A stretch of 64,000 bases of DNA, taken from contig OY730228.1 of assembly GCA_963422565.1 (NCBI GenBank), forward strand, positions 2,889,492 through 2,953,491. The letters run 5' to 3'. The DNA comes from Alphaproteobacteria bacterium. Its GTDB lineage: Bacteria; Pseudomonadota; Alphaproteobacteria; MPNO01. The notes under the pieces were generated by a model. The model made no database searches and was not told the DNA's origin. It saw only the letters and a list, made by a program, of their open reading frames with translations. The translations under genes were made by a program, and so were the position numbers. Position 1 is the first letter of the stretch. The number at the start of each line of letters is the position of its first letter. Positions 9,387 to 64,000 of the stretch are shown piece by piece.

Positions 9387-10706
9387 TCAGCGAGGCGCGC
9401 GTCCGGTTTCGCCTCGATCGACATTGCCGACGCGGTCCAGCCGCAGCCGCAGGGAGAGGGCATGGGCGTCGAGCCCCTCCGCCTCGGCGAGGATGGCGGC
9501 GCTCGGTCCGATTGCGGCCAGCGCCTCCGCGTCACAGCCGATCATCGTGGTCCGCTTCATGAAGTCCAGCACGCCCAGACCCGAGGAGAAACGGGCGCTG
9601 CGTGATGTCGGCAAGACATGGTTGGGACCGGCTATGTAGTCGCCCACCGCCTCGGGGGTGTACCGCCCGAAGAAGATCGCGCCGGCGTGGCGCACCCGCT
9701 CGGCCAGCGCTTCGGCGCACTCGCAGGCGAGCTCCAGATGTTCGGGCGCGAGGCGGTCGATCAGCGGCGGCGCGTCGTCCAGGCTCTCGGCGACGATGAC
9801 CGCGCCCTGGGTCGTCCAGCTTCGCCGCGCGATGTCGGCGCGCGGCAACCGCGCCAGCAGCGTCTCCGCCGCCGCCTCGACCGCATCCGCGAAGGTCGCG
9901 TCGTCGGCGATCAGGATCGGTTGCGCCTGCGGGTCGTGCTCGGCCTGCGAAAGCAGGTCGGCGGCGATCCATTCGGGGTCGCTGGCGGCGTCGGAGACGA
10001 CCAGGATCTCGGACGGGCCGGCGATCAGGTCGATTCCGACCGTGCCGAAGACCCGGCGCTTGGCCGTCGCGACATAGGCGTTGCCGGGGCCGGTGATCTT
10101 GTCGACCGGGGCGATGGTCCGGGTGCCGTAGGCGAAGGCGCCGATCGCCTGCGCGCCGCCCACCCGCCAGATCTCGTCGATTCCCGCGATGTCGGCCGCG
10201 GCGAGGACCGCCGGGGCGAGGCGGCCGTCGGGCGCCGGCACGGCCATGGCGATCCGCGCGACCCCCGCGATGCGGGCGGGCACCGCGTTCATCAGCACCG
10301 AGCTCGGATAGGCCGCGGTGCCGCCGGGGGTGTAGATGCAGACGGAGTCGATCGGCGTCCAGCGCTCGCCCAGCCGGACGCCCGCCCGGTCCCGGAACGA
10401 GATCGGCGCGGGGATCTGGCGGCGGTGGAACGCCGCGATCCGGGCGGCAGCCTCCTCGATCGCGGCGATCAGCCTGGCCGGGCAGGCGGTCCGCGCGGCG
10501 CGGCGCTCCGCCGCGGTGACGGCGAGGGACGCGGCGTCGGCGACCCGGAAGCGGTCGTAGCGGGCCGTGAGTTCGACCAGCGCGTCATCGCCGCGCGCGC
10601 GGACCTCGCGGAGGATGCGCGAGACGTCCTCGCCCACATCCGCTTCCGCCGCCAGACGGCGCGCGAGAAGCGCCGCGAACCGTTCCTCGAACCCGGCAGC
10701 GCCCAT
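9387..10706 (-). CDS. hisD: histidinol dehydrogenase
   Basis: ATG at 10706..10704 gives MGAAGFEERFAALLARR...SVCIYTPGGTAAYPSSVLMNAVPARIAGV...QAEHDPQAQ...HLE, the HisD signatures. The annotated N-extension overlaps hisG and is spurious. Confidence 0.92.
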   Translation of the reverse strand: MGAAGFEERFAALLARRLAAEADVGEDVSRILREVRARGDDALVELTARYDRFRVADAASLAVTAAERRAARTACPARLIAAIEEAAARIAAFHRRQIPAPISFRDRAGVRLGERWTPIDSVCIYTPGGTAAYPSSVLMNAVPARIAGVARIAMAVPAPDGRLAPAVLAAADIAGIDEIWRVGGAQAIGAFAYGTRTIAPVDKITGPGNAYVATAKRRVFGTVGIDLIAGPSEILVVSDAASDPEWIAADLLSQAEHDPQAQPILIADDATFADAVEAAAETLLARLPRADIARRSWTTQGAVIVAESLDDAPPLIDRLAPEHLELACECAEALAERVRHAGAIFFGRYTPEAVGDYIAGPNHVLPTSRSARFSSGLGVLDFMKRTTMIGCDAEALAAIGPSAAILAEAEGLDAHALSLRLRLDRVGNVDRGETGRAPR

Positions 10707-10713
10707 GTCCAGC

Positions 10714-11385
10714 CTAGCCGGCATCGACACCGTCCCGGAAGCGGTCGATCCAGGCCCCGATCTCGTCCGGACGGGTCTTGAGAGCGGCCCGGTTGATCGC
10801 GAGCCGCGCGCTGATCTCCGCGATCGTCTCGACCTCGACGAGGCCGTTGGCGCGGAGCGTGTCGCCGGTCGAGACCAGGTCGACGATCCGGCGGCAGAGG
10901 CCGAGCCTGGGGGCGAGCTCCAGCGCCCCGTTGAGCTTGATGCATTCGGCCTGAACGCCGCGCCGCGCGAAATGGCGCCGGGTGATGGCCGGATACTTGG
11001 TAGCGACCCGCACATGGCTCCAGCGCGAGGGGTCCTCCGCGGCCAGCAGCCCCGCGGTCGCCGCCACCGCCATGCGGCAGCGGCCGATCCCGAGATCGAG
11101 CGGTGCGTAGAGCTCGGAATAATCGAACTCCATCAGCACGTCGTTCCCCGCGACGCCCATATGCGCGGCCCCGAAGGCGACGAAGGTCGCGACGTCGAAG
11201 CTGCGGACGCGGATGATCGTCAACCCGTCGATATTGGTCTCGAAGCGAAGCTGCCGCGCGCGGTCGTCGTTGAAGGCGGGTTCGGGCACGATCCCGGCGG
11301 CGGCGAGAAGTGGCCGCAACTCCTCCAGGATCCGACCCCTCGGAACCGCCATGACCAGCCTCTTGCGGGCCGTCTTCCCAGCCAT
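10714..11385 (-). CDS. hisG: ATP phosphoribosyltransferase, short form
   Basis: The 223-aa ORF reads ...[21 protein letters not shown]...[31 protein letters not shown]...[14 protein letters not shown]. It stops 7 bp before the hisD start. Confidence 0.92.
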
Positions 11386-11391
11386 GCGCGT

Positions 11392-11823
11392 TCAACCCCG
11401 GTCGTGGTTCGGCCGCCAGCGCGTCGGCCAGCGATGGTCGAGATCGTCCATGCGACAGGCGATTCCGGAAGCCTCCAACCGGATATCGGCGCTGCCGGAG
11501 AATATCAGGTCGATATAGCCGTCGCCGGCCCGGATGGCGAGCAAGGCGAGGACACTGTCCCGCCGCCTGGGGTCGAAGCCCCGCCGCTTCACGCCGGCGA
11601 CGTTATGGAAGGAGACGGCGCAGTTGATCCGCTCATAGGGAACGCCCGCCGCTAAGCCGTCCGAGGCGCCTTCCCAGGCGAACCGGCTGCACACGAAGGC
11701 GAACACGCCTTCGCCGGCCAGATAGGACATCTCGCCGATCGGAACGGCGGCGTCCTGGAGGCAGGAGGAGACGATCGCGAGATCTTCCGCGTCCGTCGCG
11801 GCGAGTCTGAGCGGGTTGCTCAT
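11392..11823 (-). CDS. DUF2948-family hypothetical protein
   Basis: The 143-aa ORF reads [51 protein letters not shown]..., matching the conserved alphaproteobacterial DUF2948 protein usually found beside murA and hisD. Confidence 0.75.
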
Positions 11824-36946: not shown

Positions 36947-38596
36947 ATGACGGAAACGGCGAACAGGCTCCCCACGCTTACCACCGGCGAGGCGATCGCC
37001 AGATCGCTCGTCCTACACGGGGTCGACACGGTGTTCGGGATCCCGGGCGCGCACATGTACCATTTCAACGACGCGCTGGCGCGGGAGCGCGACCGGATCG
37101 CCTTCATCACCACGCGCCACGAGCAGGGCGCGGCGCATATGGCGTTCGGCTACGCCAAGTCGACCGGTCGCGCGGGCGTCTACACGGTGGTGCCCGGGCC
37201 GGGCGTGCTCAACTCGGCGGCGGCGCTCAGCATCGCCTACGGCGCCAACACCCCGGTTCTGTGCGTGACCGGGAACATCATGGCGGATCTGATCGGGCGC
37301 GGCCGCGGCCAGCTCCACGAACTGCCGGATCAGCTCGCCACGCTGCGCGGCTTCACGGGTTGGGCGCAGCGCATCGACCATCCGACGGCGGCGCCCCGCC
37401 TTGTCGCCGAGGCCTTCCGCAGTATGTTCGCTGGCCGCATCAGGCCGGCGGCGATCGAGGCGCCCTGGGACGTCTTCGGTCTCGCCGCCCAGGTCGATCT
37501 CGCGGTCGACCGCAGCACCCCCCCGCCGCCGCCGCCCGATACCGACGCGGTCGCCGCCGCCGCGCGGCTGATCCGCGAGGCGAAGAACCCGTTGATCGTC
37601 GTCGGCGCCGGCGCTCAGCATGCCGCGGAGGAAGTCACCGCGCTGGCCAGGCTCGTTCAGGCCCCGGCGACCAGCTTCCGCAGCGGCAAGGGCGTCGTCT
37701 CCAACGACGACCCCTACGGCCTTCTATCCGCGGCCGCCTACGAGTACTGGCCCAAATGCGATCTCCTGATCGGCATCGGCAGCCGACTCGAGCTGATCCA
37801 TTTCCGCTGGCGCTGGTCGCCCGAGGGCATGAAGACCGTCCGTATCGATATCGACCCCACCGAGTTCGTCCGCATCAGGCCGGATGTCGGCATCGTGACC
37901 GATGCGAAGCTCGGAACCTCGGCCCTGATCGATGCGCTCGAGAAGAGCCTCGACAAGCGCCGATCCAGGGCCGAGGAGTTTCTCGGCTACAGCGCGATCG
38001 CGACGGAGAAGATTTCGGTCGTGCAGCCCCAGATGGCCTTTCTCGATGCGCTTCGGTCCGCCCTGCCCCCGGACGGCTTTTTCGTCGAGGAGATCACCCA
38101 GATCGGCTTCGCCGCCCGTTTTGGCTTCCCCGTCTACGGCCCCCGGCAATACGTGACCTGCGGCTATCAGGACAGTCTGGGCTTCGGGTTCCAAACCGGC
38201 CTCGGGGTCAAGATCGCCAACCCCGGCCGCTGCGTGGTCTCGATCTCCGGCGACGGCGGCTTCATGTTCGGGGTCCAGGAACTGGCGACTGCCGTCCAGC
38301 ACGGCATCAATCTGGTGGCGGTCGTGTTCAACAATGCGAGCTTCGGCAATGTCCGGCGCGATCAGATGACTGTTTTCGACGGGCGGCTGCTTGGCGCCGA
38401 ACTCGTCAACCCGGACTTTGCCGCCATGGCCGAGAGCTTCGGTGCCAAGGGCGTGCGGGCATCGACGCCGGAGGCATTGCGTGCGGCGATCGAGGACGGG
38501 TTCAAGGAGGACGGACCGGTCCTGATCGAGGTGCCGATCGAGCGGGGAAGCGAGGCCTCTCCCTGGCCGTTCACGCACCCCCTGACCGGGCGGTGA
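36947..38596 (+). CDS. thiamine-pyrophosphate-dependent enzyme (acetolactate synthase-like family)
   Basis: ATG at 36947 follows a GGAAAGGA Shine-Dalgarno-like stretch and gives MTETANRLPTLTTGEAIARSLVLHGVDTVFGIPGAHMYHFNDALAR... The TPP-binding GDGGF...NN motif follows: ISGDGGFMFGVQELATAVQHGINLVAVVFNNASFG. Confidence 0.88.
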   Translation: MTETANRLPTLTTGEAIARSLVLHGVDTVFGIPGAHMYHFNDALARERDRIAFITTRHEQGAAHMAFGYAKSTGRAGVYTVVPGPGVLNSAAALSIAYGANTPVLCVTGNIMADLIGRGRGQLHELPDQLATLRGFTGWAQRIDHPTAAPRLVAEAFRSMFAGRIRPAAIEAPWDVFGLAAQVDLAVDRSTPPPPPPDTDAVAAAARLIREAKNPLIVVGAGAQHAAEEVTALARLVQAPATSFRSGKGVVSNDDPYGLLSAAAYEYWPKCDLLIGIGSRLELIHFRWRWSPEGMKTVRIDIDPTEFVRIRPDVGIVTDAKLGTSALIDALEKSLDKRRSRAEEFLGYSAIATEKISVVQPQMAFLDALRSALPPDGFFVEEITQIGFAARFGFPVYGPRQYVTCGYQDSLGFGFQTGLGVKIANPGRCVVSISGDGGFMFGVQELATAVQHGINLVAVVFNNASFGNVRRDQMTVFDGRLLGAELVNPDFAAMAESFGAKGVRASTPEALRAAIEDGFKEDGPVLIEVPIERGSEASPWPFTHPLTGR

Positions 38597-38796
38597 CCGG
38601 GAGGGGGGAGAGATGACCGGCGCGGGGCGCGCCGACTACCGCGCCTTCGTAGCCGGACCGGACCCGGATCGCCATGGGCGCATCGTCCGGGCGCGAACCC
38701 GCCCTCGCCGCCCGCGCGGGGGGTGGCGCGGGACACGCTGACCGCGTCGGCGGCTGCGGCCGGGCCGTTCGATCTGGCCCGGTGTCAACGCTCGAG

Positions 38797-38841
38797 GGCG
38801 TCGTGTCTGCGCGCCGCGAAGCGTCCCGCAGACACGACGCC
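38797..38841. repeat. perfect 15-bp inverted repeat (hairpin) with a 15-nt loop
   Basis: GGCGTCGTGTCTGCG at 38797-38811 pairs exactly with CGCAGACACGACGCC at 38827-38841. No U-tract follows. Confidence 0.6.
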
Positions 38842-39087
38842 AGGGCAGCCCCTCGTGTAAGCTGGCGTGCAGGCTTCGTACCCGCATGGGGGTCCTCCTT
38901 CGGCTGCTTGTTCACACCGACAGCCTCGGAGACCCCCAACCCCGATTCAAGGCCCGCGTCTCACATCCGTTCTTCGTGGGCCGAAGTCGATCGCAAGACA
39001 GAAGAGATCGATCCAGGTTCTTGATTCCTTCCCGCTGCGGAGATTATCGAAGAGCTATCGGCAACAGTCGAACCAGGAGGAAAAGAG

Positions 39088-39168
39088 ATGGAAATGTCCC
39101 GTTTGGCCACACTCTCGGCCTTGGCTTTCTGCCAGTCCTTGCCGTATCCGGTTTGGGCAGGCGAGTAA
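39088..39168 (+). CDS. 26-aa hydrophobic peptide ORF with a strong Shine-Dalgarno site (hypothetical)
   Basis: AGGAGG sits 8 nt upstream of the ATG. The peptide is MEMSRLATLSALAFCQSLPYPVWAGE. It lies at the start of a low-GC block. Confidence 0.3.
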   Translation: MEMSRLATLSALAFCQSLPYPVWAGE

Positions 39169-39221
39169 GTTTTATTTTGCAGCGTTAAGCATCCTAACGT
39201 GCCGAAGTTAAGAGACAGAAG

Positions 39222-39425
39222 GTGCTAGTGATTACGTCGGATGGGGAGAAAGTTATTGAAAATGAAGGAGAAGATTTAATTGGCTCTATGATAGATAGCA
39301 TTAGCCATTTATTTGTCTCGACGATCAACGAGATGACCGATGATGGCTTTGAACCTGTGGGTGGCGTTTCTATTGCACTTGGCTATTGTGGCCCGACAGT
39401 ATGTCAGGTCTTGTATGACGACTAG
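39222..39425 (+). CDS. 67-aa acidic, Cys-containing small protein (hypothetical)
   Basis: A GTG start follows GAAGG. The protein is (M)LVITSDGEKVIENEGEDLIGSMIDSISHLFVSTINEMTDDGFEPVGGVSIALGYCGPTVCQVLYDD. Its local GC is about 35-50% against a host background above 65%. Confidence 0.35.
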   Translation: MLVITSDGEKVIENEGEDLIGSMIDSISHLFVSTINEMTDDGFEPVGGVSIALGYCGPTVCQVLYDD

Positions 39426-39457
39426 TCATCTGGAGCTGAAGTAAGTGTCATTATAGG

Positions 39458-39754
39458 ATGTCCATCGGGATTGGATTTGGGAGGTTTCCCCCGATGGCTC
39501 GTGGCGTTGGCCGTCCGCTGGCGGCCTACGAGGCCAAGGTAGCGGCGCGCGCCGGGCGCAAGGGCCGGGCCAAGGGCAAGCGGCCGAAGCCGCCTGGGGG
39601 GACGCCGCGCGGGGACGAGCAGAGCAACCTGAGCGACCCTGACAGCCGGCTGATGCGCAAGAGCAGGAGGCACGAGTTCCGCCCGAGCGGGGCCGGGACA
39701 GCGGTGAAGGAAACCGAGCCCAAAGTCCGACAGACTGATAGGGCATGTTCTTGA
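39458..39754 (+). mobile_element. IS1182/IS5-superfamily transposase N-terminal fragment (relic)
   Basis: The fragment reads ...RPLAAYEAKVAARAGRKGRAKGKRPKPPGGTPRGDEQSNLSDPDSRLMRKSRRHEF..., the conserved (T/S)DPDSR(L/I)M(K/R) region of IS1182-family transposases. It is only about 98 aa and decays before the DDE domain. Confidence 0.65.
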
Positions 39755-54037: not shown

Positions 54038-54712
54038 ATGTCCGAGGTCATATTCAACGGTCCGGAGGGACGGTTGGAAGGCCGCTATCGCCACGGCGGA
54101 GCGCCCGGAGTTCCGATCGCGGTCGTGCTTCATCCGCACCCGCAATTCGGCGGGACGATGAACAACAAGGTCGTCTTCCAGATATATCGAGCGTTCATGC
54201 GGCGCGGCTTCTCGACGTTGCGGTTCAATTTCCGCGGTGTCGGCCGGTCGCAGGGTGCGCGCTGCGTCTACGGCGAAGACGACGGCGTCGGCGAGCTGAG
54301 CGACGCTGCGGCCGCGCTCGACTGGCTGCAGTCCTGCAACCCCGACGCGCCCCAATGCTGGGTCGGGGGTTTCTCGTTCGGGGCGTGGATCGGCATGCAG
54401 CTCCTGATGCGTCGGCCGGAGATCACGAGCTTCATCTCGGTCGCGCCGCCGGCCGACAGGTACGACTTCACCTTTCTCGCCCCTTGTCCGTCGTCGGGGC
54501 TCTTCGTCCACGGCGACGCCGACGATGTGGTGCCGCTCGAGTCCGTCTCGGCGCTCGCCGAGAAGCTCTCGGCCCAGCGCGGGGTCGCCATCGACTACCG
54601 GGTGATCCGGGGAGCCAATCACTTCTTCAACCAGCATCTGGAGGCGCTGACGGAGGAGATCGAGCACCATCTCGACGGGAGTTACGGCACGGCGGAAGAT
54701 GCCGCGAGCTAG
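54038..54712 (+). CDS. alpha/beta-fold hydrolase
   Basis: The 224-aa ORF has VVLHPHPQFGGTMNNKV...GFSFGAWIG (a GxSxG-like nucleophile elbow)...VHGDADDVVPL. Confidence 0.8.
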   Translation: MSEVIFNGPEGRLEGRYRHGGAPGVPIAVVLHPHPQFGGTMNNKVVFQIYRAFMRRGFSTLRFNFRGVGRSQGARCVYGEDDGVGELSDAAAALDWLQSCNPDAPQCWVGGFSFGAWIGMQLLMRRPEITSFISVAPPADRYDFTFLAPCPSSGLFVHGDADDVVPLESVSALAEKLSAQRGVAIDYRVIRGANHFFNQHLEALTEEIEHHLDGSYGTAEDAAS

Positions 54713-54719
54713 GGCGTGT

Positions 54720-54845
54720 TCACACTAACGCAGTGCCTCGACGATGAGCGCGAAGGTGATGAAGCCGAGGAAGATGACGTCGAGCTTGTCGTAGCGTGTG
54801 AAGTGAGGTGGGCTCGCCTTTTCGGACAGCCTGGCGGCGATCTTG
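54720..54845 (-). mobile_element. IS5-family transposase C-terminal fragment (orfB end)
   Basis: The minus-strand translation ends ...HFKIAARLSEKASPPHFTRYDKLDVIFLGFITFALIVEALR*, which matches the conserved ...RIATRYDKLxxNFLxFIxLAxIxxWL terminus of IS5 (IS427-group) transposases. Confidence 0.55.
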
Positions 54846-55251
54846 AAGTGTATCTTGGTTGAAGTTCAGGCCGCCATCCAGCGCACCATCGCGGACGAGC
54901 AGGTGGCCGAAGTGATCGAGCGGACGCTGGAGACGACACCGGCGGACGCCACCCACCGGTCGCTGCGCTCGATGGCGAAGGAGGCGGGGTTGTCGCATAG
55001 CTCGATCTGGCGCATCCGGGGTGCGTTCGGCCTGCAGCCGAACCGGTCGGAGACCTTCAAGCTCTCCAGCGATCCCGCACTTCGTGGACAAGGTCCGCGA
55101 CATCATCGGCCTCTATCTGTCGCCTCCCGACCGCGCGTTGGTGCTCTGTGTCGACGAGAAGAGCCGGATCCAGGCCCTCGACCGCACCCGGCCGGTCTCC
55201 CCGACTGGCCGCCCGCCCCGTGGCGCGATGCCGAGGTCGAGGGCGAGGTGA
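54843..55251 (+). mobile_element. IS630-family transposase fragment (frameshifted and truncated)
   Basis: One frame gives ...[41 protein letters not shown]. The next frame gives [40 protein letters not shown], the hallmark IS630 motif. The frame ends before the DDE region. Confidence 0.75.
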
Positions 55252-55309
55252 TCTGGACCGCCTGCACCCTCACCCTCACATCCAGCATACCCACCGGAGG
55301 AGACCTTCA

Positions 55310-55483
55310 ATGAGCTTTGCCGAGAAGTTTGGCCACTTCCTGCTGTTCCTCATACTGACGATCATCACCCTGTTCATCTATCCGATCTACTTCATGGTCA
55401 CCACGATCAGAGAGCAGAACCTGCTGTTGGCCGAAATTCGGGATTCCCTCAAGGCCCGACCGCCTTCGGCGCCAGATCGCTAA
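55310..55483 (+). CDS. 57-aa small membrane protein (hypothetical), nested among IS fragments
   Basis: GGAGGAG lies 9 nt upstream of the ATG. The protein is MSFAEKFGHFLLFLILTIITLFIYPIYFMVTTIREQNLLLAEIRDSLKARPPSAPDR, a single TM helix. GC is lower than the host average. Confidence 0.4.
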   Translation: MSFAEKFGHFLLFLILTIITLFIYPIYFMVTTIREQNLLLAEIRDSLKARPPSAPDR

Positions 55484-55591
55484 CGATGTATGGAACACGA
55501 TCGAGATTCGCGCGTGGAACCGCGCCTGCCGATGGCGGTCCTCCCGCTCGTGGTCCTGGTCCTCGCCACTTCTCCGGACTTGGGAGATCGG

Positions 55592-55846
55592 CTACCGCAT
55601 CCTGTGCAAGCGCGAACGCGCTGAATGGGCAAAGGGGGCGACCGGCAGCAGTCGCCACGGGCAGCCCGAGCGCAAGATGTACAGAACCGCGTTCACTACG
55701 TCCCGCAAGTCTGTCGTCCGCGGTCGGCCCAGAGCTTGCGCCGCCGGCATATGGGGTTCGATCGACTTCCACTCATCGTCGGTAAGATCGCTCGCATAGC
55801 GCAACTTCTCGCGGTCATACTTCGGTCGAGTGATTTCGGTCCACAT
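55592..55846 (-). mobile_element. IS5-family (IS427-group) transposase orfA fragment
   Basis: The fragment reads [68 protein letters not shown]..., the canonical orfA N-terminus of IS427-group elements. The tail is diverged and no intact orfB follows. Confidence 0.75.
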
Positions 55847-56236
55847 GTTGTGCCTCCGTGCTCGTCCAACACAAGCAAGTGAAGCACAACATACTGAGAT
55901 CACTCAATTCATTTCGGGCCAGACACTCAGTCATTAGCTATCCCGACAGGAATCGAAGCTCCATGAAGGGAGTGTACGGCCGGAACCTCGCAAAATGGGA
56001 GAATTGTCGTCTGATGATCTGTCAGGCCAACCTCAGCTTGACGAAGCGGCACCTCGCGGGTCCGCGAGAAGCGCACCGTCATGCAGTCTTCGACCTCCTC
56101 GATCTCGGGGCGAGGCAGCCTCGTGGAGGCACGACCGTTCCGCCATGGTGACCGTTCCACGGCTCCCGTCAAATCGCCTCTTGGTTTGCGGTACCGTATG
56201 AATTATCTCACCTCTGGTTTACTTGGAGGCCTCGCG

Positions 56237-56512
56237 ATGCCGGCAACTGAACGGCTCACCACCACGATCTTGACCAAGGGCCAGGTGGTTCTGCCCAGAG
56301 CGATCCGTCGAACGCTGCGCTGGGAGTCGGGAATGCGGCTGGCGGTGGAGAACACGCCCGAGGGCGTGCTGCTGAAACCCGCGCGCGTGTTTGCCGAGAC
56401 CCGGCCCGAGGATGTATTCGGCTGCCTTGCCTGCGATGGCCCACCCAGATTCATGGCGGAGATGGAGGCGGGGGTCCTGGCGGAGGCGAAGCGGCGCCAT
56501 GCGGGCGGTTGA
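56237..56512 (+). CDS. vapB: AbrB/MazE/SpoVT-family antitoxin (VapB-like)
   Basis: GGAGG lies 8 nt upstream. The protein reads MPATERLTTTILTKGQVVLPRAIRRTLRWESGMRLAVENTPEGVLLKPA..., a swapped-hairpin DNA-binding domain. It overlaps the downstream PIN gene by 14 nt. Confidence 0.8.
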   Translation: MPATERLTTTILTKGQVVLPRAIRRTLRWESGMRLAVENTPEGVLLKPARVFAETRPEDVFGCLACDGPPRFMAEMEAGVLAEAKRRHAGG

Positions 56513-56884
56513 TACCAATGTCGTTGTTCGATACCTGACCGGCGACGAGCCGGTGCAGGCCGCCAAGGCCAGAGCCGTGATCGAGGCCGGGCATGTCTTC
56601 GTCGGCACCACGGTTCTGCTGGAAAGCGAACGGGTGCTGCGTAGCGTCTACGGTTTCGGCGGAATCGAGGTTGCGGCGGCGCTTCGCGCCTTCGCAGGAC
56701 TGCCCGGCGTCTTGGTGGAGAGCCCTGCCGTACTCGCCGACGCACTCGACTGGCCGACGAGGGCATGGACTTCGCCGACGCACTCCATCTCGGCGCTGCC
56801 GGACGTCGCGAGGCCATGCTGACCTTCGACCGCCGGTTTATCGAGACTGCCAAGGATCTTCCTGTCGGGGTGACCGCAGCTTGA
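56499..56884 (+). CDS. vapC: PIN-domain toxin VapC, interrupted by a 1-nt frameshift near 56752-56758
   Basis: Frame A gives MRAVDTNVVVRYLTGDEPVQAAKARAVIEAGHVFVGTTVLLESERVLRSVYGF...VLADALDW. The protein continues in another frame as ...DEGMDFADALHLGAAGRREAMLTFDRRFIETAKDLPVGVTAA*. The junction is gactgg|ccgac and is restored by adding one G to make TGG GCC GAC. Confidence 0.7.
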
Positions 56885-57102
56885 TGTCCGCGTCGATCGC
56901 AGCGGAACGGGAGCGAAGCTCGATAGGCAGGACCTGCGGTAGCTGTTCGCCCGGTCCTTCGGTAATGACGCAAGGATTGCCGTCTGTCGGCGCCGAAATC
57001 TCCGTTCTCTCGACGCGGAAAGACGATCCCGATGGCCTCTCCCCTCCCACCCATGCGCCAAACAACCCGTATGACCGGAAACCAGGCTTGTTCGGACCGT
57101 CC

Positions 57103-58256
57103 CTAGGATCCGTCGCCGGGGCGGTTCGCGGAGGTTTCCGGAGATCCGGTTCCGGTAGTAGATCGCCCGGGCGACGGGCGGAGCGCGCATCGGGGCCGGA
57201 ACAGCCGCCCGCCGGTGATCGGCCGGGCGACGCCCGTCGTCGTCGGCAGGCTCAACGGCAGGCCGCGCAGGCTCCGTACCGCGAGGAAGGCGAAGGCCTG
57301 CGCCTCGAGCGCGTCGCCCGCCCAGCCCTCGCGCTCGACCGGTAGGCAGGGAACGCCGAGGACGCGGCGCAGCCGGGACATGATCGCCGGGTTGCGTCGC
57401 CCGCCGCCGGTTGCCAGCCACAGCCTGGGCGGCGCCGGCAGGCAGGCGGCCGACCGCCGGATCGCCTGGACCGTCACCTCGACCAGCGTGGCGGCCCCGT
57501 CGGCGAGCGCCATGTCGCCGAGCGGATCGAGGTCGAACGCCAACCGATCCAGCGACTTCGGCGGGAGGCGGGCGAAATAGGGGGCGGCGAGATAGCGCGC
57601 CACCGCCGCCGGGTCCGCCGCACCTGCGGCGGCGATCCGCCCGTCCTCGTCGAACGGGCGGCCGGTCCGATCCTCGACCCAGCGGTCGATCAGCGCGTTG
57701 CCGGGGCCGGTGTCGAAGGCGATCGGCGGCGCGCCGGCGCGGATCCAGGTCAGGTTGGCGATTCCGCCGATATTGAGCAGGGCGACCGGGCCCTTCAGCC
57801 GCGCGGCGAGCGCCTGATGATAGAGGGGCGCGAGCGGCGCGCCCTCGCCGCCGGCAGCGACATCGGCGCTCCGGAAATCGCAGACCACCGGGATGCCGAG
57901 CTCCTCCGCGAGGAGCGCGCCGTCGCCGATCTGGAGCGTCCGCCCGGCCCGCGGGCGTGATCGATCGTATGGCCGTGGAAGCCGACCAGACCGACGCCCG
58001 GATGGCCGGCGACGAGGCGGTGGGCGGCCCCCGCGTGGAGCCGGGTGAGCTCCGCCTCCACTGCCTCGTAGCCGGTCGTCCTGCCCAGCGTCGCCGCGAG
58101 CCTACGGCGAAACGACGCCGGGTAGGGGACCGTCATATGGGGTCCGAACGCTGCGACGGTCTCTCCGTCCGTCCGAATCAGCGCCGCGTCGATGCCGTCG
58201 AGCGAGGTTCCGCTCATCAGGCCGAGCGCCCAGAGGGCGGCCGGGCCGCCCGCCAT
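57103..58256 (-). CDS. anmK: anhydro-N-acetylmuramic acid kinase, interrupted by a 1-nt frameshift near 57940-57950
   Basis: The N-terminal frame, with ATG at 58256, gives MAGGPAALWALGLMSGTSLDGIDAALIRTDGE...GFHGHTIDHARGPG. The C-terminal frame gives ...RTLQIGDGALLAEELGIPVVCDFRSADVAAGGEGAPLAPLYHQALA... The minus-strand junction gggccggg|cggacg is restored by adding one G. The start overlaps the upstream deacetylase stop as TGATG. Confidence 0.8.
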
Positions 58257-59182: not shown

Positions 59183-60439
59183 ATGACCGAATATCGTTCC
59201 GGCTTCCTGCGCGCCGTCGCCGGGCGCGGCTTCGTCCATCAATGCACCGATGCCGCCGCGCTCGACGCGCTGCTCGCCGAAGGGCCTCCGAGGGTCTGCT
59301 ATATCGGGTTCGACTGCACGGCCGACAGCCTGCATGTCGGATCGTTGGTGCCGATCATGCTGCTGCGCTGGTGGCAGGAAGCCGGCCACAAGCCGATCGT
59401 GCTCATGGGTGGCGGAACGACCAAGGTCGGGGATCCGTCCGGTCGGGACGAGACCCGACGCCTGCTCGACGGCGCGCAGATCGCGGCCAACATGGCCGGG
59501 ATCAAGAAGGTCTTCTCGCAGTTCCTGACCTTCGGCGACGGCCCCGCGGACGCGGTGATGATCGACAATGCCGACTGGCTCGACGGGCTCGCCTACATAC
59601 CCTTCCTGCGCGAATACGGGAGCCATTTCTCGGTCAACCGGATGCTCGGCTTCGATTCGGTCAAGCTGCGGCTCGACCGCGCGCAGCCGCTGACCTTCCT
59701 GGAGTTCAACTACATGGTGCTCCAGGCCTACGACTTCCTCGAGCTCCACCGTCGCACGGGCTGTCTGGTCCAGATGGGTGGCTCCGACCAGTGGGGCAAC
59801 ATCGTCTCCGGGATCGAGCTCGGCCGCCGTCTGGAGGGCGCGCGGCTCCTCGGGCTGACGACGCCGCTCATCACGACCGCATCCGGCGCGAAGATGGGCA
59901 AGACCGCCGCCGGCGCGGTGTGGCTTAACGCCGAGCGCGTTTCTCCCTACGACTACTACCAGTTCTGGCGCAACGCGGCCGACGCCGACGTGGGTCGTTT
60001 CCTGCGTCTGTTCACGATGCTGCCAGAGGGCCGGATCGCCGCCCTCGAGGCGCTGAAGGAGGCGGAGCTGAACGAGGCGAAAAAGGCGCTCGCCCATGCC
60101 TGCACCGCGCTCTGTCACGGCGCCGAGGTGGCGGACGCGGCGGCGGAAACCGCGGCGGCGACGTTCGAGGCCGGGGCGCTCGGGCGCGGCCTGCCGCGCA
60201 TCGCGCTTCCCCGCGCCGAACTCGAAGCCGGCATCCCGGCGTTCGAGCTGTTGTGCCGCGCCGATCTTGCCCGGTCGCGGAGCGACGCGCGCCGGCTGAT
60301 CCGCGGCGGCGGCGGGCGGCTCAACGATCGCGCGATCGCGAGCGAGACCCGGACGGTAACCCTGGGCGACCTCTCCGCCGACGGGGTCATCAAGCTCTCG
60401 GCCGGGCGCAAGAAGCATGTCGTCGTCGAGCCGCGCTGA
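59183..60439 (+). CDS. tyrS: tyrosine--tRNA ligase
   Basis: The sequence has [51 protein letters not shown] (HIGH region) and KMGKT (KMSKS variant). It is divergent from anmK, a conserved arrangement. Confidence 0.96.
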
Positions 60440-60457
60440 AGCGGTCGGTGCCGCCGG

Positions 60458-61489
60458 TCAATGCCGGCGCGGGAGCTTCATATAGTCGTAACGGTCGCCC
60501 GCCTCGACCCGCAGCGAAAGCACATCGTCGTCGCGCAGCAGAGTGAAGCGCAGCTTGGCGCCCGGCGGGCCGGCTGCCCATAATGTCCTGTAGTAATGGC
60601 CCAGCCCGCTCACGGCGACGCCTTCGAGCGACAGCAGGACATCGCCCGGCTGGAGCCCGGCCTGATCGGCGGGCGCGTTGGGGGCGACCCCGGTGACGAT
60701 CAGCCGCCGTTCGGACTCGCCGACATACATCCCGAGCCATGGGCGCGGCGGCCGGGCCGCCCGCCCGGTCCGGATCATCGCCGGCCCGATCGGCTCCAGC
60801 AGATCGATCGGGACGAACATGTTGCCGGGCGCCGGCGCGTCGCCTTCGATGGCGTGCTCGATATAGAGCGAGCCGATCCCGACCAGCTCGCCCCTGCGAT
60901 CGATCAGCGCCGCCCCGCCCCAATAGGGATGCATCGGCGCCGTGTAGACCGCCCGATCGAGCATGTACTCCCAGGAGCCGGCGAATTCGTGGATCGAGAC
61001 GACATTGGCGGCGATCGCATGATCCTCGCCGCCGCAGGAGGCGACGATGACGGGATCGGATTCGGCGAGCCGCGCCGAACGGCCGATCGGCACGGGCGCG
61101 ACCCCGAGCGGCGCGCGCGCCCGCACCATGCCGAAACCGGTCTCGTGATCGTAGGCAACGGGGTCGGCCTCGACCTTCCTGCCGTCGCGGCCGAGGAGGG
61201 TCACGGCGCTCGCCTCGCTCATCAGATAGCCGATCGTCAGCACGAGGCCGTCCGCATCGATCGCGACCCCGTTGCCCTCGCGTTCGGTGCCGAGGATAGA
61301 GGCGGTGAAGGCCGTTCGCGGCACCTCGGCATGGAGCCGGAAGACGGCGTCCAGCACGCGGTCGAGATCGTAGCCGATGGCCGCGCGGTCGGGCCGCGGC
61401 GCGCGCAGCAGGGCGGGGTGGACGCCACCCGGCACCCCCTGCGGCCGATACCCGTTGGCGTGCTCGATTCCCGCCATTGACCCCGCCAT
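60458..61489 (-). CDS. trypsin-like serine protease with C-terminal PDZ domain (S1C/DegP-like)
   Basis: The likely start is the internal ATG at 61489 (MAGSMAGIEHANGYRP...). The sequence has GTEREGNGVAIDADGLVLTIGY...GGAALIDRRGELVGI and a PDZ-like C-terminus, GLQPGDVLLSLEGVAV. Confidence 0.75.
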   Translation of the reverse strand: MAGSMAGIEHANGYRPQGVPGGVHPALLRAPRPDRAAIGYDLDRVLDAVFRLHAEVPRTAFTASILGTEREGNGVAIDADGLVLTIGYLMSEASAVTLLGRDGRKVEADPVAYDHETGFGMVRARAPLGVAPVPIGRSARLAESDPVIVASCGGEDHAIAANVVSIHEFAGSWEYMLDRAVYTAPMHPYWGGAALIDRRGELVGIGSLYIEHAIEGDAPAPGNMFVPIDLLEPIGPAMIRTGRAARPPRPWLGMYVGESERRLIVTGVAPNAPADQAGLQPGDVLLSLEGVAVSGLGHYYRTLWAAGPPGAKLRFTLLRDDDVLSLRVEAGDRYDYMKLPRRH

Positions 61490-61696
61490 CCCGCCGGCGC
61501 CATGGGCCAGCCTCGGCAGGCTAGCGGATGGCGGCCATCCGGACAAACCGGCGTCCGCTTTCGTGCCCCGGCCCATGGGTGCGACCATACGCTTCGCCGG
61601 GCGTCATCTGTCTCGGCCCCGGGGCGTCCGAATTGCCCTCGCCCGCTTTCCCTACAAAAGCCGTCAACCAGATGCCGTTGCCGGATATGCGAATGT

Positions 61697-62347
61697 TCAC
61701 TGCGAGAGACCGCTGACGAAACCGCAAAGTTTCTCGAATGCCGGAGACATAAAATTCCAGATGTTCTGCTGCGCGGCTTCCCCGACTCGTGCCATCGGAT
61801 CCGGCATCGCGGCGAGATAGGCATGCGCGAAACTCTTGTCCATATTGGCCGACATTATCGCGCCTTCTGCTGTGAGGCATTCCATATACTTCTCAACGCA
61901 TCGAGCGATAACTGTCCCCTCGAAAGACTGTCGGCACAGGGTTTCCAGACTGCCGAACTCATCGCGATCCGGCACGATGAACACGCCAACGGAGGGAACC
62001 GAACCCGAGAATAGTCCGGGGAAGTCGAGCGGTTCGTATCCAGACTGCAAGAGATGGCTTCTGATGCTTTGAAATGCACCGTCCGGGTTGTTGTCGGCGT
62101 CTCGGACGACACCGATGGATTGGAGCGTGGGCCGTGTTCGTACTGCGGCGCGTATCGCTTTCAGTCTTCCGGGAAACCGGTCTTTTCCCCCGGCATCGAT
62201 CACCTGAATATCCGACACGCCGCCAAGGCAATACCGGATCAGGGCACGGAACAGATTGACCTCGTCCCGCCCCTCGACGAGCAAGAGTCGGTCGGAATCG
62301 ATGCTCAGCTTCTCCTTCCGGCCTTCCTCCGGATTCTCTTGCGGCAT
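61697..62347 (-). CDS. DUF4435/TOPRIM-like protein (AbiLii/AriB-like putative nuclease partner of an ABC-type ATPase)
   Basis: The ATG at 62347 overlaps the upstream ATPase stop. The protein reads MPQENPEEGRKEKLSIDSDRLLLVEGRDEVNLFRALI...SIGVVRDADNNPDGAFQSI, with a conserved Glu and a DxD as in TOPRIM/OLD-type domains. GC is lower than the flanks. Confidence 0.6.
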   Translation of the reverse strand: MPQENPEEGRKEKLSIDSDRLLLVEGRDEVNLFRALIRYCLGGVSDIQVIDAGGKDRFPGRLKAIRAAVRTRPTLQSIGVVRDADNNPDGAFQSIRSHLLQSGYEPLDFPGLFSGSVPSVGVFIVPDRDEFGSLETLCRQSFEGTVIARCVEKYMECLTAEGAIMSANMDKSFAHAYLAAMPDPMARVGEAAQQNIWNFMSPAFEKLCGFVSGLSQ

Positions 62348-63399
62348 TCATCTGACCTCGAGGTCAAGTTCGCGGGCTCCCGCCAGCGCCTCTCCAGTGA
62401 ATGTCGCGGCTTCCGTTCGTCCCGTATTTTCGTTACGGAAAAGCTTGTGGATGGCGAGATCCGCGGGGGCGTCGGCGAAGGCGTCTATCGCCGCGTCGAT
62501 GAATTCGCCGCTATGGGTCGTTGCGATGAATTGCACGTTCCATTGCTTCATCCACTGGCGCACCTTGCTCCATATGTCGCGTTGCGCGGAACAATGGATA
62601 CCGTTTTCCAGCTCGTCCACCAGCAGAACGGATTCTCGACAGGCCGAGAAACTGAGCAGCAATCGCACCAGTCTCACGGCACCGCCTCCGAGATCGTGAA
62701 GCGGCCTGGGCTTTCCGCCCGCCACTGTGACCGAGAGATAGGACTCCCCGCTACCGTCGGTCAGAATCTCCACATCGTCGCTTCCATCGACGACCAGGTT
62801 GAGGGCCTTCACCAGCTCCTTCTTGCGACCGTCTCTGACCAGGCTCGAATATCTCTGAAAATATTCGTCGGGGGTCTCCTGCTAAAATCTCGTGCTTTCT
62901 ATGATGCAGTTCCGATGTTCAGATGGCGGTTTTTGATATGGGAGGAGCACCGTCCCCGAGGGTGTAACCTGGATCGCATTTACCTCGTCTCCTACGGGTT
63001 TCCGTCGAGATAGGTGCGGATTAATCCCATCACCGGAGATAGTTTCTCTGTATTTCCTTGCAGAGATCGGACGATAGCTCCTTCGGAGGAAACATCGTTG
63101 ATCTTCTCGAAAATGAATCCGACCTCCTGTTTCGTTCCACATTCTTTTCCGCGAAGGGTCAACGCGCCGCCCGTCAGCCGGGATATTGGATCCAGGGGCG
63201 GAACGCGGGAGCGCTGCACGTTCGCGTTCCACAACAGACTTGGATTGTATCGCCCGACGAACAGCCACATCGCCTCGATCAGAGCCGTCTTGCCGACGCC
63301 GTTCGCGCCGGTGATCAGATTGGCCCTCGTCAGAAGGGGAAGATCGAGGCCGTCGATGCCGCGGTAGCGAACGGCCGTGAATCTCTCTAGTCGAACCAT
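62348..63399 (-). pseudogene. ABC-type ATPase (AAA_21/AAA_15-like, AbiLi/AriA/OLD-ATPase-like), disrupted by a frameshift near 62993-62999 and an in-frame TAG at 62882-62884
   Basis: The N-terminal frame gives MVRLERFTAVRYRGIDGLDLPLLTRANLITGANGVGKTALIEAMWLF (Walker A) and stops at 62992. The +1 frame continues ...PVGDEVNAIQVTPSGTVLLPYQKPPSEHRNCIIESTRF and then hits TAG. The same frame reads on as QETPDEYFQRYSSLVRDGRKKELVKALNLVVDG...LLVDELENGIHCSAQ (Walker B / D-loop)...FIATTHSGEF (H-loop) to 62348. Confidence 0.65.
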
Positions 63400-63516
63400 C
63401 GCGTTTCTCTGTCGAGCGGATCCGCAGGACAGTCCGGGCCGACCGCCGCGCTCTCCGCATCTGCCGGACCGGTGCGAGAACCGATGCCCTGCGGAGGCGC
63501 GGACCGCCGCCGCCGT

Positions 63517-64000
63517 TCAGGCGATCGCCGCAGCCCCGGTCTCCTCGATGCGCACCGGGTGATCGTAGCGATCAACCATCTCGTGGGGAACGACCTGCCA
63601 GAAGCGCGGGAACTCGCGCTTCCAGTCGATCAGCAGTCGTTCGGCGAAGCGCGACCGGGTCTCCCGGACATGTTCCTCGATCAGCGATCTCAGCGCGTCC
63701 TCCCAATGGGAAAGCCGGATCCGCTGGTAGAAGACGGTGTCCTCGTTGACGCGGGCGCCGAAGGTCCCGTCCGAGTCGTAGACGAAGGCCATGCCGCCGG
63801 TCATGCCGGCGGCGAAATTGTCCCCGACCGCGCCGAGGATGACCGCGGTCCCGTTGGTCATGTATTCGCAGCCGTTGGAGCCGCAGCCCTCGATCACCGC
63901 GACGGCGCCGGAGTTGCGCACCGCGAAACGCTCCCCGGCCTGGCCCGCGGCGAACAGGCGGCCCGCCGTGGCGCCGTAGAGCACGGTGTTGCCGATGATC
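63517..64000 (-). CDS. gltB: glutamate synthase large subunit, C-terminal GXGXG domain; 5' part lies beyond the window
   Basis: The sequence has LYGATAGRLFAAGQAGERFAVRNSGAVAVIEGCGSNGCEYMTNGTAVILGAVGDNFAAGMTGGMAFVYDSDGTF...LIEEHVRETRS, the canonical GltB C-terminal domain. The frame is open to the window edge. Confidence 0.9.
   Translation of the reverse strand, partial: IIGNTVLYGATAGRLFAAGQAGERFAVRNSGAVAVIEGCGSNGCEYMTNGTAVILGAVGDNFAAGMTGGMAFVYDSDGTFGARVNEDTVFYQRIRLSHWEDALRSLIEEHVRETRSRFAERLLIDWKREFPRFWQVVPHEMVDRYDHPVRIEETGAAAIA

Follow-up and report, generated by a model that had tools for sequence, protein, structure and literature searches.

Background

OLD nucleases are divided into class 1 (P2 Old, TsOLD), class 2 (GajA of Gabija) and class 3 (retron effectors), and in this family the ATPase and the TOPRIM domain are fused. 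In PARIS, which is often phage- or satellite-borne, an ABC ATPase of about 55 kDa (AriA) is paired with a DUF4435 TOPRIM nuclease (AriB). PARIS is triggered by phage anti-restriction proteins, and AriB cleaves host tRNA-Lys (PMC11464382); the system behaves as a type II toxin-antitoxin pair (PMC13064643). AbiL, from lactococcal plasmids, consists of the ATPase AbiLi and of AbiLii, reported to be an OLD-type TOPRIM protein by structure prediction (PMC13064643). The PDC systems are a set of 145 candidates, among them PDC-M38, a "guilt-by-embedding" candidate whose definition came from cassettes lying within BREX, DISARM or type I restriction-modification (R-M) systems (Payne et al., bioRxiv 10.1101/2024.01.29.577857). 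Our literature search found neither DUF3226 nor PDC-M38 in the main text of any paper, and PDC-M38 only in a supplementary table.

Here we examine a low-GC locus within a 64,000-nucleotide stretch of an alphaproteobacterial contig (hereafter the window). The reading we prefer, with a probability of roughly 0.8, is that the locus is a horizontally acquired PDC-M38-type two-gene cassette whose ATPase gene was recently inactivated, that is, a dead copy of a candidate system.

Gene layout

The low-GC locus comprises two abutting minus-strand genes located between gltB and a serine-protease gene, with the following features.

62348–63399, minus strand: ATPase gene with two lesions, mapped against the 120 intact homologues listed (about 350 aa each)
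63001–63399, minus strand: 5′ segment of the ATPase gene, codons 1–133 (ORF list, tblastn), with Walker A GANGVGKT at 63286–63309
62992–63399, minus strand: 5′ ATPase ORF as read, 135 aa, ending at a premature TAG (62992–62994)
62348–62998, minus strand: 3′ segment of the ATPase gene, codons 134–350, in the −1 frame (tblastn), with stop codon TGA at 62348–62350
62348–62812, minus strand: 3′ ATPase ORF, 154 aa, its frame open upstream as far as the in-frame TAG
62999–63001, minus strand: A3 run with a 1-nt deletion that shifts the frame by −1 (ancestral GGA AAA CCC GTA, G-K-P-V)
62882–62884, minus strand: nonsense codon TAG, in frame, where the ancestral codon was CAG (Gln); plus-strand base 62884 is A, ancestrally G
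61697–62347, minus strand: DUF3226 / OLD-type TOPRIM gene, intact, 216 aa, a putative nuclease effector
63400–63516, minus strand: spacer from the gltB stop to the ATPase start, 117 nt, host-like GC
61478–61696, minus strand: spacer from the DUF3226 stop to the protease start, about 220 nt, the protease gene probably starting at the ATG at 61477

The protease start is placed at 61477 because the alignment with homologues of the protease begins only at residue 37/38. The coupled minus-strand gene pair of the preliminary description is borne out by the ORF list, the TGA of the ATPase gene directly abutting the ATG of the 216-aa gene (62345–62347), which is preceded by GAGG 8 nt upstream. The ORF translations likewise contain in place the three ATPase motifs read earlier, namely GANGVGKT, the Walker B/D-loop LLVDELENGIH (62594–62626) and the H-loop TTHS (62510–62521), together with an ABC signature, LGGGA (62678–62692); in homologue P0001 the Walker A lysine is K37 and the Walker B glutamate E263.

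No recognisable promoter was found in 63400–63516 and no minus-strand terminator in 61478–61696, neither scan yielding anything above shuffled expectation, and neither spacer shares conserved DNA with other loci, conservation across 7 loci being absent outside coding regions. The flanks of the gene pair carry no significant direct or inverted repeats and no element ends. Rfam gave no match in 60000–64000. A tRNA-Pro called by ARAGORN at 61058–61135, considered as an integration site, was rejected as a false positive since it lies inside the protease CDS and receives no support from Rfam.

Comparison with known systems

The profile search proposed in the preliminary description was run on the ATPase and its partner, and on best profile scores, with PADLOC's own thresholds not applied, both genes match PDC-M38. 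PDC-M38A is the best PADLOC match for both ATPase fragments (E = 7.8e-9 for the 5′ and 1.6e-25 for the 3′ fragment), with weaker matches of the 3′ segment to AbiLi (2.6e-20) and AriA (2.6e-14). When the ATPase is repaired, PDC-M38A scores 121.3 bits (E = 1.7e-35), followed by AbiLi (PDLC02336) at 107 bits, and AriA scores 72 bits. In Pfam, AAA_23, AAA_15 and AAA_21 match the N-terminal segment and AAA_21 the 3′ segment (E = 8e-11). The 216-aa protein matches positions 6–204 of 220 of PDC-M38B (PDLC04624; 46.4 bits, E = 9.2e-13), and PDC-M38A and PDC-M38B are also the best PADLOC matches of an intact homologue pair. By sequence profile, then, the gene pair is the PADLOC candidate PDC-M38, a family that the preliminary description had left unassigned. 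The pair shares with that candidate its gene order (ATPase, then small partner), strand and tight coupling, and one homologue immediately adjoins a type I R-M system, as in the candidate's definition; it differs in that the window's ATPase gene is a pseudogene, so that only one of the two genes is intact.

The AbiL/PARIS architecture proposed earlier holds for the split between ATPase and TOPRIM protein but not for the identity of the partner as AriB or AbiLii. Where PARIS has a DUF4435 protein, the partner here is DUF3226 without an AriB HMM match, and its structural similarity to AriB is weak (Foldseek E of about 0.02, TM about 0.3); the ATPase, at about 350 aa, also differs from the 55-kDa AriA. 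AbiL resembles the pair in having two genes, and its AbiLi model is the second-best match of the ATPase, but PDC-M38A outscores AbiLi, AbiLii models do not match the DUF3226 protein at E ≤ 0.1 (nor homologue P0224 at E ≤ 0.01), and the host range and vehicle of AbiL are not those of the window's pair. Unlike the fused OLD proteins, the ATPase and TOPRIM proteins have a gene each, in the window as in all sampled homologues, and neither a UvrD-like helicase (class 2) nor a retron reverse transcriptase or ncRNA (class 3) adjoins the pair. Sequence searches found no solved relative of the ATPase or of the DUF3226 protein; PH0156 of Pyrococcus horikoshii, a structural-genomics protein (PDB 2P62), is 18% identical, and the family profile has no sequence match to it.

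Genomic contexts of the family

The ATPase and DUF3226 genes are neighbours whose stop and start codons overlap or abut in 6/6 sampled loci, and their adjacency extends to five relatives just 31–34% identical. At 50% identity the family falls into about 4,250 clusters, and its partnership with the ATPase is strictly conserved. One sampled pair (L001) directly follows hsdRMS and a PIN toxin-antitoxin pair, a second (L084) lies among transposases and a third (L087) within a defence island; the other three are bare two-gene islets among housekeeping genes without defence neighbours. Whereas PARIS often travels on phages or satellites, no PDC-M38-type pair turned up on a sequenced phage or plasmid: tblastn found the family on none of 72,556 plasmids (PLSDB) and none of 50,697 phages (INPHARED), and IMG/VR held just four distant copies.

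These contexts suggest, through guilt by association, a defence function for PDC-M38-type pairs. It is unlikely that the family instead has no anti-phage role and serves as a selfish addiction module of toxin-antitoxin-like character or as a pair that repairs or processes nucleic acids, in which case the window's copy would be a decaying selfish element. Half of the sampled copies are, as such a function would allow, bare islets amid housekeeping genes, the ATPase fold is equally near the SMC, Rad50 and RecF repair proteins, and PARIS, too, behaves like a type II toxin-antitoxin pair (PMC13064643). Nevertheless, the best profile matches of the ATPase are all defence or defence-candidate ATPases (PDC-M38A, AbiLi, AriA, PtuA and MAD3), the candidate family is defined by its embedding in R-M, BREX and DISARM systems, L001 and L087 lie in defence islands, and sporadic distribution together with foreign GC is atypical of housekeeping repair genes.

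In PDC-M38-type pairs the first gene encodes an ABC ATPase that resembles SMC/Rad50 proteins and is about 350 aa long, and the second a stand-alone DUF3226 protein with an OLD-type TOPRIM metal-dependent nuclease domain as its core. By analogy with PARIS, AbiL and OLD systems, the ATPase of intact copies may act as an ATP-dependent sensor or regulator that binds and controls the TOPRIM effector. Phage infection might then release or activate the effector, which would cut nucleic acid (tRNA or DNA) and thereby stop the infected cell or the phage.

The TOPRIM partner

The 216-aa protein is a member of DUF3226 (PF11536), with a score of 98.1 bits (E = 7.7e-28) that exceeds the gathering threshold of 27 bits and near full-length coverage of the model (profile positions 2–203 of 208); its homologues carry precomputed PF11536 annotations. 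It contains both the Glu motif and the DxD motif first noted from the sequence, the former as E25 in LLLVEGRDE (62261–62287) and the latter as D83-A-D85 (62093–62101). The protein has the TOPRIM fold, with the conserved Glu on the first strand, and the catalytic E and DxD are invariant, as expected of a TOPRIM / OLD-type nuclease domain; the score against Pfam OLD-like_TOPRIM is below the Pfam cut-off. The TOPRIM half of the original DUF4435/TOPRIM label is thus retained, whereas the DUF4435 half gives way to DUF3226: DUF4435 (PF14491), AriB and AbiLii were all rejected as identities for the protein, no model of theirs in Pfam or PADLOC matching at E ≤ 0.1.

The reading frame is intact, but at positions conserved in the family the window's DUF3226 copy is more divergent than every one of 119 homologues, deviating at 5/61 conserved columns (homologue mean 0.77, maximum 4). 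Its five atypical substitutions are P107L, H110P, G128R, A133S and G191A. These deviations are consistent with relaxed or attenuating selection.

Base composition and synteny

The GC content of the gene pair is 57.3%, that of the range 61590–63516 is 58.7% and that of the whole window 68.5%. Same-sized windows average 68.6 ± 3.3% GC, and the gene pair, the lowest such stretch in the window, falls short of the window's GC by 11 points or about 3.4 SD; only 0.16% of such windows are as low. Third-position GC (GC3) is 66–70% in the gene pair against 87–90% in the flanking genes, about 20 points lower, and each of the six homologue cassettes examined lies 7.5–16 points below its own flanks in GC. 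The foreign composition proposed for the patch is therefore supported, although its GC had been put at 45–57% and windows of 300 nt span 51–61%, so that the lower bound of 45% does not stand.

Insertion into a conserved backbone, as envisaged in the preliminary description, was not demonstrated. A synteny search across 185,579 species-representative genomes took the protease as its anchor; the closest relatives were only 65–67% identical. Of 80 related protease loci, none has gltB or the gene pair in the surrounding 10 kb. The five closest relatives lose synteny precisely on the gene-pair side of the protease, and the genes found upstream of the protease are not gltB but those for a thioesterase, an LLM oxidoreductase, prfB and PBP1A, all of which are absent from the entire window. 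Because the relatives differ at this junction, the comparison is uninformative with regard to insertion and shows only a synteny break; as no empty site turned up, it is only the base composition that points to insertion.

Lesions in the ATPase gene

Eight intact homologues aligned by tblastn to the ATPase gene as two collinear segments. For 6/8 of them, residues 1–133 map to 63399–63001 and residues 134–350 to 63001–62351 in the −1 frame, the latter segment with 62–70% identity to the intact homologues, and the frame switch is located at GGAAACCC. Adding one A to the A3 run restores YLDGKPVG, in which K is the commonest residue of its column (53 of the 120 homologues listed), and the DNA of homologue L001 reads GGA AAA CCG GTG at the corresponding position. 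The frameshift reported at this A-run is thus confirmed as a 1-nt deletion by both tblastn and homologue DNA. The second reported lesion, the in-frame TAG at 62882–62884, is equally real in the sequence and independent of the frameshift, lying 39 codons downstream of it. Its column is Gln in 104 of the 120 homologues listed, and the codons at this position in six homologue DNAs are CAG (5/6) and CAA (1/6). Each of the 120 homologues listed is encoded by one uninterrupted ORF. No intact-ATPase strain relative was found: the protein cluster has one member, and a metagenome scan gave only a 33%-identical match.

Under the preferred reading, loss of one A from an A4 run brought the premature TAG into frame after 135 codons, and the independent CAG→TAG change is a second knock-out of the same gene. 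Given the frameshift and the nonsense codon, only a Walker-A-only ATPase fragment could be made, and we infer that the window's copy would be non-functional in vivo. The TOPRIM gene, by contrast, keeps both an intact reading frame and its catalytic residues.

Outside the two lesions, conservation of the ATPase matches that of its intact homologues, with deviations at a typical 2/98 conserved columns; since there is no excess of substitutions, the lesions may be very recent or partly sequencing artefacts. We regard it as quite improbable that the gene pair is intact in the organism and that the missing A, and possibly the TAG too, are sequencing or assembly errors. Such errors would fit an indel in a homopolymer and a source that is a single 3.44-Mb contig, but a run of three or four A residues is very short for a homopolymer, a stop-creating C→T substitution is untypical of consensus errors, and two independent errors less than 120 nt apart in one gene are improbable. 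Moreover, the 44 host-type genes in the window are unfragmented, with a median of 381 codons, which argues that the lesions do not reflect general assembly noise.

The suggestion of an unusual mechanism found no support, and programmed recoding that throttles a toxic system, by a −1 frameshift at A_AAC_CCG (which formally fits X_XXY_YYZ, with a 0-frame stop directly after) and read-through of the second TAG, is extremely improbable, as it would need two separate recoding events, homologues are uninterrupted and sampled homologue DNAs show no shift, CCG is a poor slippery triplet as YYZ at −1 frameshift sites, RNA downstream of the shift site folds no better than shuffles (z = −0.6), and TAG is an ordinary stop that terminates 8 of the 44 host-type genes.

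Implications

For the source genome the consequence of a recently inactivated PDC-M38-type cassette is minor: its annotation here should read pseudogenised candidate defence cassette, rather than active system, PARIS or AbiL. Of more interest than the window's copy is the family, with its OLD-type TOPRIM core and strict ATPase partnership. As a speculation to which we give well under even odds, the ATPase and DUF3226 proteins might form a functional split OLD-like ("PARIS/AbiL-like") branch of immunity, in which the TOPRIM protein has a family-specific invariant Cys3-His cluster (C138, C150, C157 and H175) and which may spread autonomously into high-GC genomes as an islet of two genes that has no recognisable mobility genes. 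The window would then show sensor-first loss, with the effector gene kept but attenuated, and such loss, if true, would help to tell an ATPase that restrains the nuclease from one that activates it. Intact pairs such as those of L001 (10001–11709) and L002 (10001–11703) could bear on whether split ATPase-TOPRIM systems besides PARIS use tRNA cleavage.

Gene layout and lesions of the ATPase gene

The ORF list contains three ORFs on the minus strand of 61697-63399:

62992-63399, minus strand: ORF of 135 aa, 5′ part of the ATPase gene
62348-62812, minus strand: ORF of 154 aa from a GTG, its frame open upstream up to a TAG at 62882-62884
61697-62347, minus strand: ORF of 216 aa, the DUF3226 gene

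The TGA of the 154-aa ORF abuts the ATG of the 216-aa ORF, which has a GAGG 8 nt before it. All motifs quoted in the preliminary description (GANGVGKT, LLVDELENGIH, TTHS, LLLVEGRDE and DADNNPDG) were found.

The two lesions proposed for the ATPase gene, a frameshift at an A-run and an in-frame TAG, were both mapped against intact homologues by tblastn and alignment columns. For the reconstructed 350-aa ATPase, 120 intact homologues were listed, most of them 349-351 aa in length, with 53-67% identity and, for 119 of them, 100% coverage. Eight intact homologues searched against the window by tblastn gave two collinear segments; for six of them the first segment pairs residues 1-133 with 63399-63001, and the second, in the -1 frame, pairs residues 134-350 with 63001-62351. 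The second segment continues straight across the TAG. The column of this TAG is Gln in 104 of the 120 homologues and the codon is CAG in five of six homologue DNAs and CAA in the other, so the TAG is a C→T nonsense mutation. Where the frame changes, the window has GGAAACCCGTA, versus GGA AAA CCG GTG in the homologue locus L001. Restoring one A yields YLDGKPVG, in which Lys is the commonest residue of its column, and therefore one A appears to have been lost from an A4 run (62999-63001). As assembled, the gene is predicted to yield only a 135-aa fragment with Walker A alone.

Fragmentation is absent from the 44 host-type genes of the window, which are long (median 381 codons), indicating that the assembly is not riddled with indels, and a stop-creating substitution is atypical as a consensus error. 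A near-identical relative was sought among metagenomes without success. The preliminary description had also allowed for an unusual mechanism, and the ATPase might be made by programmed recoding, with a -1 shift at A_AAC_CCG followed by read-through of the TAG. Although this heptamer, with a 0-frame TAG directly behind it, has the form of a slippery site, all listed ATPase homologues are single ORFs, the RNA downstream of A_AAC_CCG is only as stable as shuffled sequence (z = −0.6), TAG terminates 8 of the 44 host genes, and a second, independent read-through event would be needed. Recoding is therefore not supported.

Identity of the pair

The 216-aa protein had been described as DUF4435; Pfam gives no DUF4435 match and instead identifies DUF3226 (PF11536; 98 bits, profile positions 2-203 of 208), while the OLD-like_TOPRIM model scores just under its cut-off. 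Among 42 family members no variation is seen at E25, D28, E29, D83 and D85, nor at C138, C150, C157 and H175. The latter four belong to the helical C-terminal portion of DUF3226 (61697-62347, minus strand), and three invariant Cys and one His suggest a putative structural or regulatory metal site. The best two Foldseek matches are PARIS AriB chains, and these are weak (E about 0.02, TM about 0.3).

Pfam places the ATPase among the AAA_21/AAA_15 ABC ATPases, and the structure model of its closest intact homologue (pLDDT 86.5) is about equally close to SMC, Rad50 and RecF repair proteins. The preliminary description left the family unassigned, but profile searches of PADLOC-DB with the reconstructed ATPase and its partner made it assignable as PDC-M38. 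The top matches are PDC-M38A for the ATPase (E = 1.6e-25 and 7.8e-9 for its fragments) and PDC-M38B for the partner (E = 9.2e-13), whose sole other PADLOC match is the TOPRIM part of a GajA model. Once repaired, the ATPase scores 121 bits with PDC-M38A, 107 with AbiLi and 72 with AriA, and the intact homologue pair P0014/P0224 gives the same PADLOC ranking. No specific NCBIfam model was found for either protein, and our literature search found no paper naming DUF3226. PDC-M38 is one of 145 'phage defence candidates' without experimental test, defined by embedding in or beside BREX, DISARM or type I R-M (Payne et al., bioRxiv 10.1101/2024.01.29.577857).

The proposed likeness to AbiL and PARIS holds for architecture, since the pair resembles both as a split OLD (OLD nucleases themselves being fused), but it belongs to neither system because its effector is of a different family, nor is it a fused OLD nuclease. 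The module belongs to DUF3226 and to PDC-M38, a candidate family already known but uncharacterised; with its ATPase pseudogenised, this copy is a dead one.

Distribution and contexts of the family

The DUF3226 profile matches 4,252 representatives at 50% clustering (E ≤ 1e-3; 2,263 at E ≤ 1e-10), nearly all of them stand-alone proteins of about 200-220 aa. The family has no match in PLSDB or INPHARED and is rare in IMG/VR. In all six sampled homologue loci the ATPase gene is immediately 5′ of the DUF3226 gene with overlapping stop and start, and the adjacency is also kept in five relatives at just 31-34% identity, which argues strongly that the two form an obligate functional pair.

Contexts vary. 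The L001 module comes after hsdRMS and a FitA/PIN pair, that of L084 lies amid IS66, mutator and DDE transposases and a ThsB-TIR fragment, and L087 is a defence island with a second ATPase gene and a truncated DUF3226 gene. In L002, L085 and L086, as in the window, the module is a bare two-gene islet among housekeeping genes. The additional genes in L087 (6864-8275), ~1.7 kb from the intact pair, encode an AAA_15/21 ATPase and, after it, a DUF3226 protein cut to 94 aa; they represent another decayed copy, with the effector as the broken partner.

The cassette (~10001-11710 in each locus; 50-58% GC, hosts 65-70%) is 7.5-16 GC points under its flanks in all six loci. Across these loci we saw no DNA conserved outside coding regions, no terminal repeats and no integrase.

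Composition and neighbourhood of the module

With 57.3% GC, versus 68.5% for the window and 68.6 ± 3.3% for same-sized windows, the two module genes are the lowest-GC stretch of the 64 kb, and their GC3 is 66-70% versus 87-90% in the flanking protease gene, tyrS and gltB. Composition is thus clearly atypical as described, but the lower bound of 45% is not reached (minimum 300-nt window, 51%).

A protease-anchored search recovered 80 loci, the closest five being uncultured Alphaproteobacteria MAGs (65-67% identity). Over 10 kb around the protease, the ATPase gene, the DUF3226 gene and gltB are missing from all 80. The five close relatives have the protease, tyrS and the two genes beyond it in common with the window; on the upstream side of their protease lie thioesterase, LLM oxidoreductase, prfB and PBP1A genes, which are nowhere in the window, placing the module exactly at a synteny breakpoint. 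Composition and sporadic distribution support a probable horizontal acquisition. Of the proposed insertion into a conserved backbone, the foreign origin is thus supported, but a clean insertion between adjacent core genes found no support in these loci.

Other features of the region were also seen. The protease-tyrS gap measures about 6.6 kb in the five closest relatives (in L005, 11021-17692) and only 18 nt in the window (60440-60457), which would be a second rearrangement or deletion at the locus. The protease, DegS/HtrA-like and of type S1C, has a PDZ domain and falls under all NCBIfam equivalog cut-offs. Its longest ORF (376 aa) runs 37 codons past the homologues' alignment start (61478-61588, minus strand), and translation probably begins at the ATG at 61477 (MAGIEHANG...), since all homologues align only from there. 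ARAGORN places a tRNA-Pro(CGG) within this CDS (61058-61135, minus strand), where Rfam finds no tRNA at E ≤ 1; it is almost certainly a false positive rather than an integration target. A stretch of 1.15 kb at 38594-39741 (61.4% GC), between TPP-enzyme and radical-SAM-like genes, has no host-type ORF, and nor does a second atypical patch about 5 kb from the module (54710-57105; 62.6% GC), which looks like degenerate mobile and toxin-antitoxin DNA:

55148-55483: small DUF4234 ORF
55592-55903, minus strand: IS4/5-family transposase N-terminal fragment (DUF4096), 67.6 bits
56081-56512: MazE/AbrB-like ORF, sub-threshold match
56391-56822: PIN-like ORF, sub-threshold match

Possible function and decay

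The family obligately pairs an ABC ATPase with all catalytic motifs and a TOPRIM protein with an intact metal-binding site; in the window copy the ATPase is truncated. In PARIS, AriA sequesters AriB until ATP-dependent detection of a phage protein frees AriB, which cuts tRNA-Lys (PMC11464382); AriB is toxic and AriA is its antitoxin (PMC13064643). OLD enzymes are two-metal TOPRIM nucleases (PMC10568477). By analogy with PARIS and OLD, the ATPase of intact copies might sense infection and control the DUF3226 nuclease, which would then cut RNA or DNA and abort infection.

In the ATPase, 2 of 98 family-conserved columns deviate, which is typical and indicates that its lesions are recent. In DUF3226, 5 of 61 conserved columns deviate (P107L, H110P, G128R, A133S and G191A), more than in any of 119 homologues (mean 0.77, maximum 4), which would fit attenuation of the effector or a relaxed constraint on it. 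We speculate that, with such an effector, losing a restraining ATPase could be tolerated. Intact homologues make the family worth testing by experiment.
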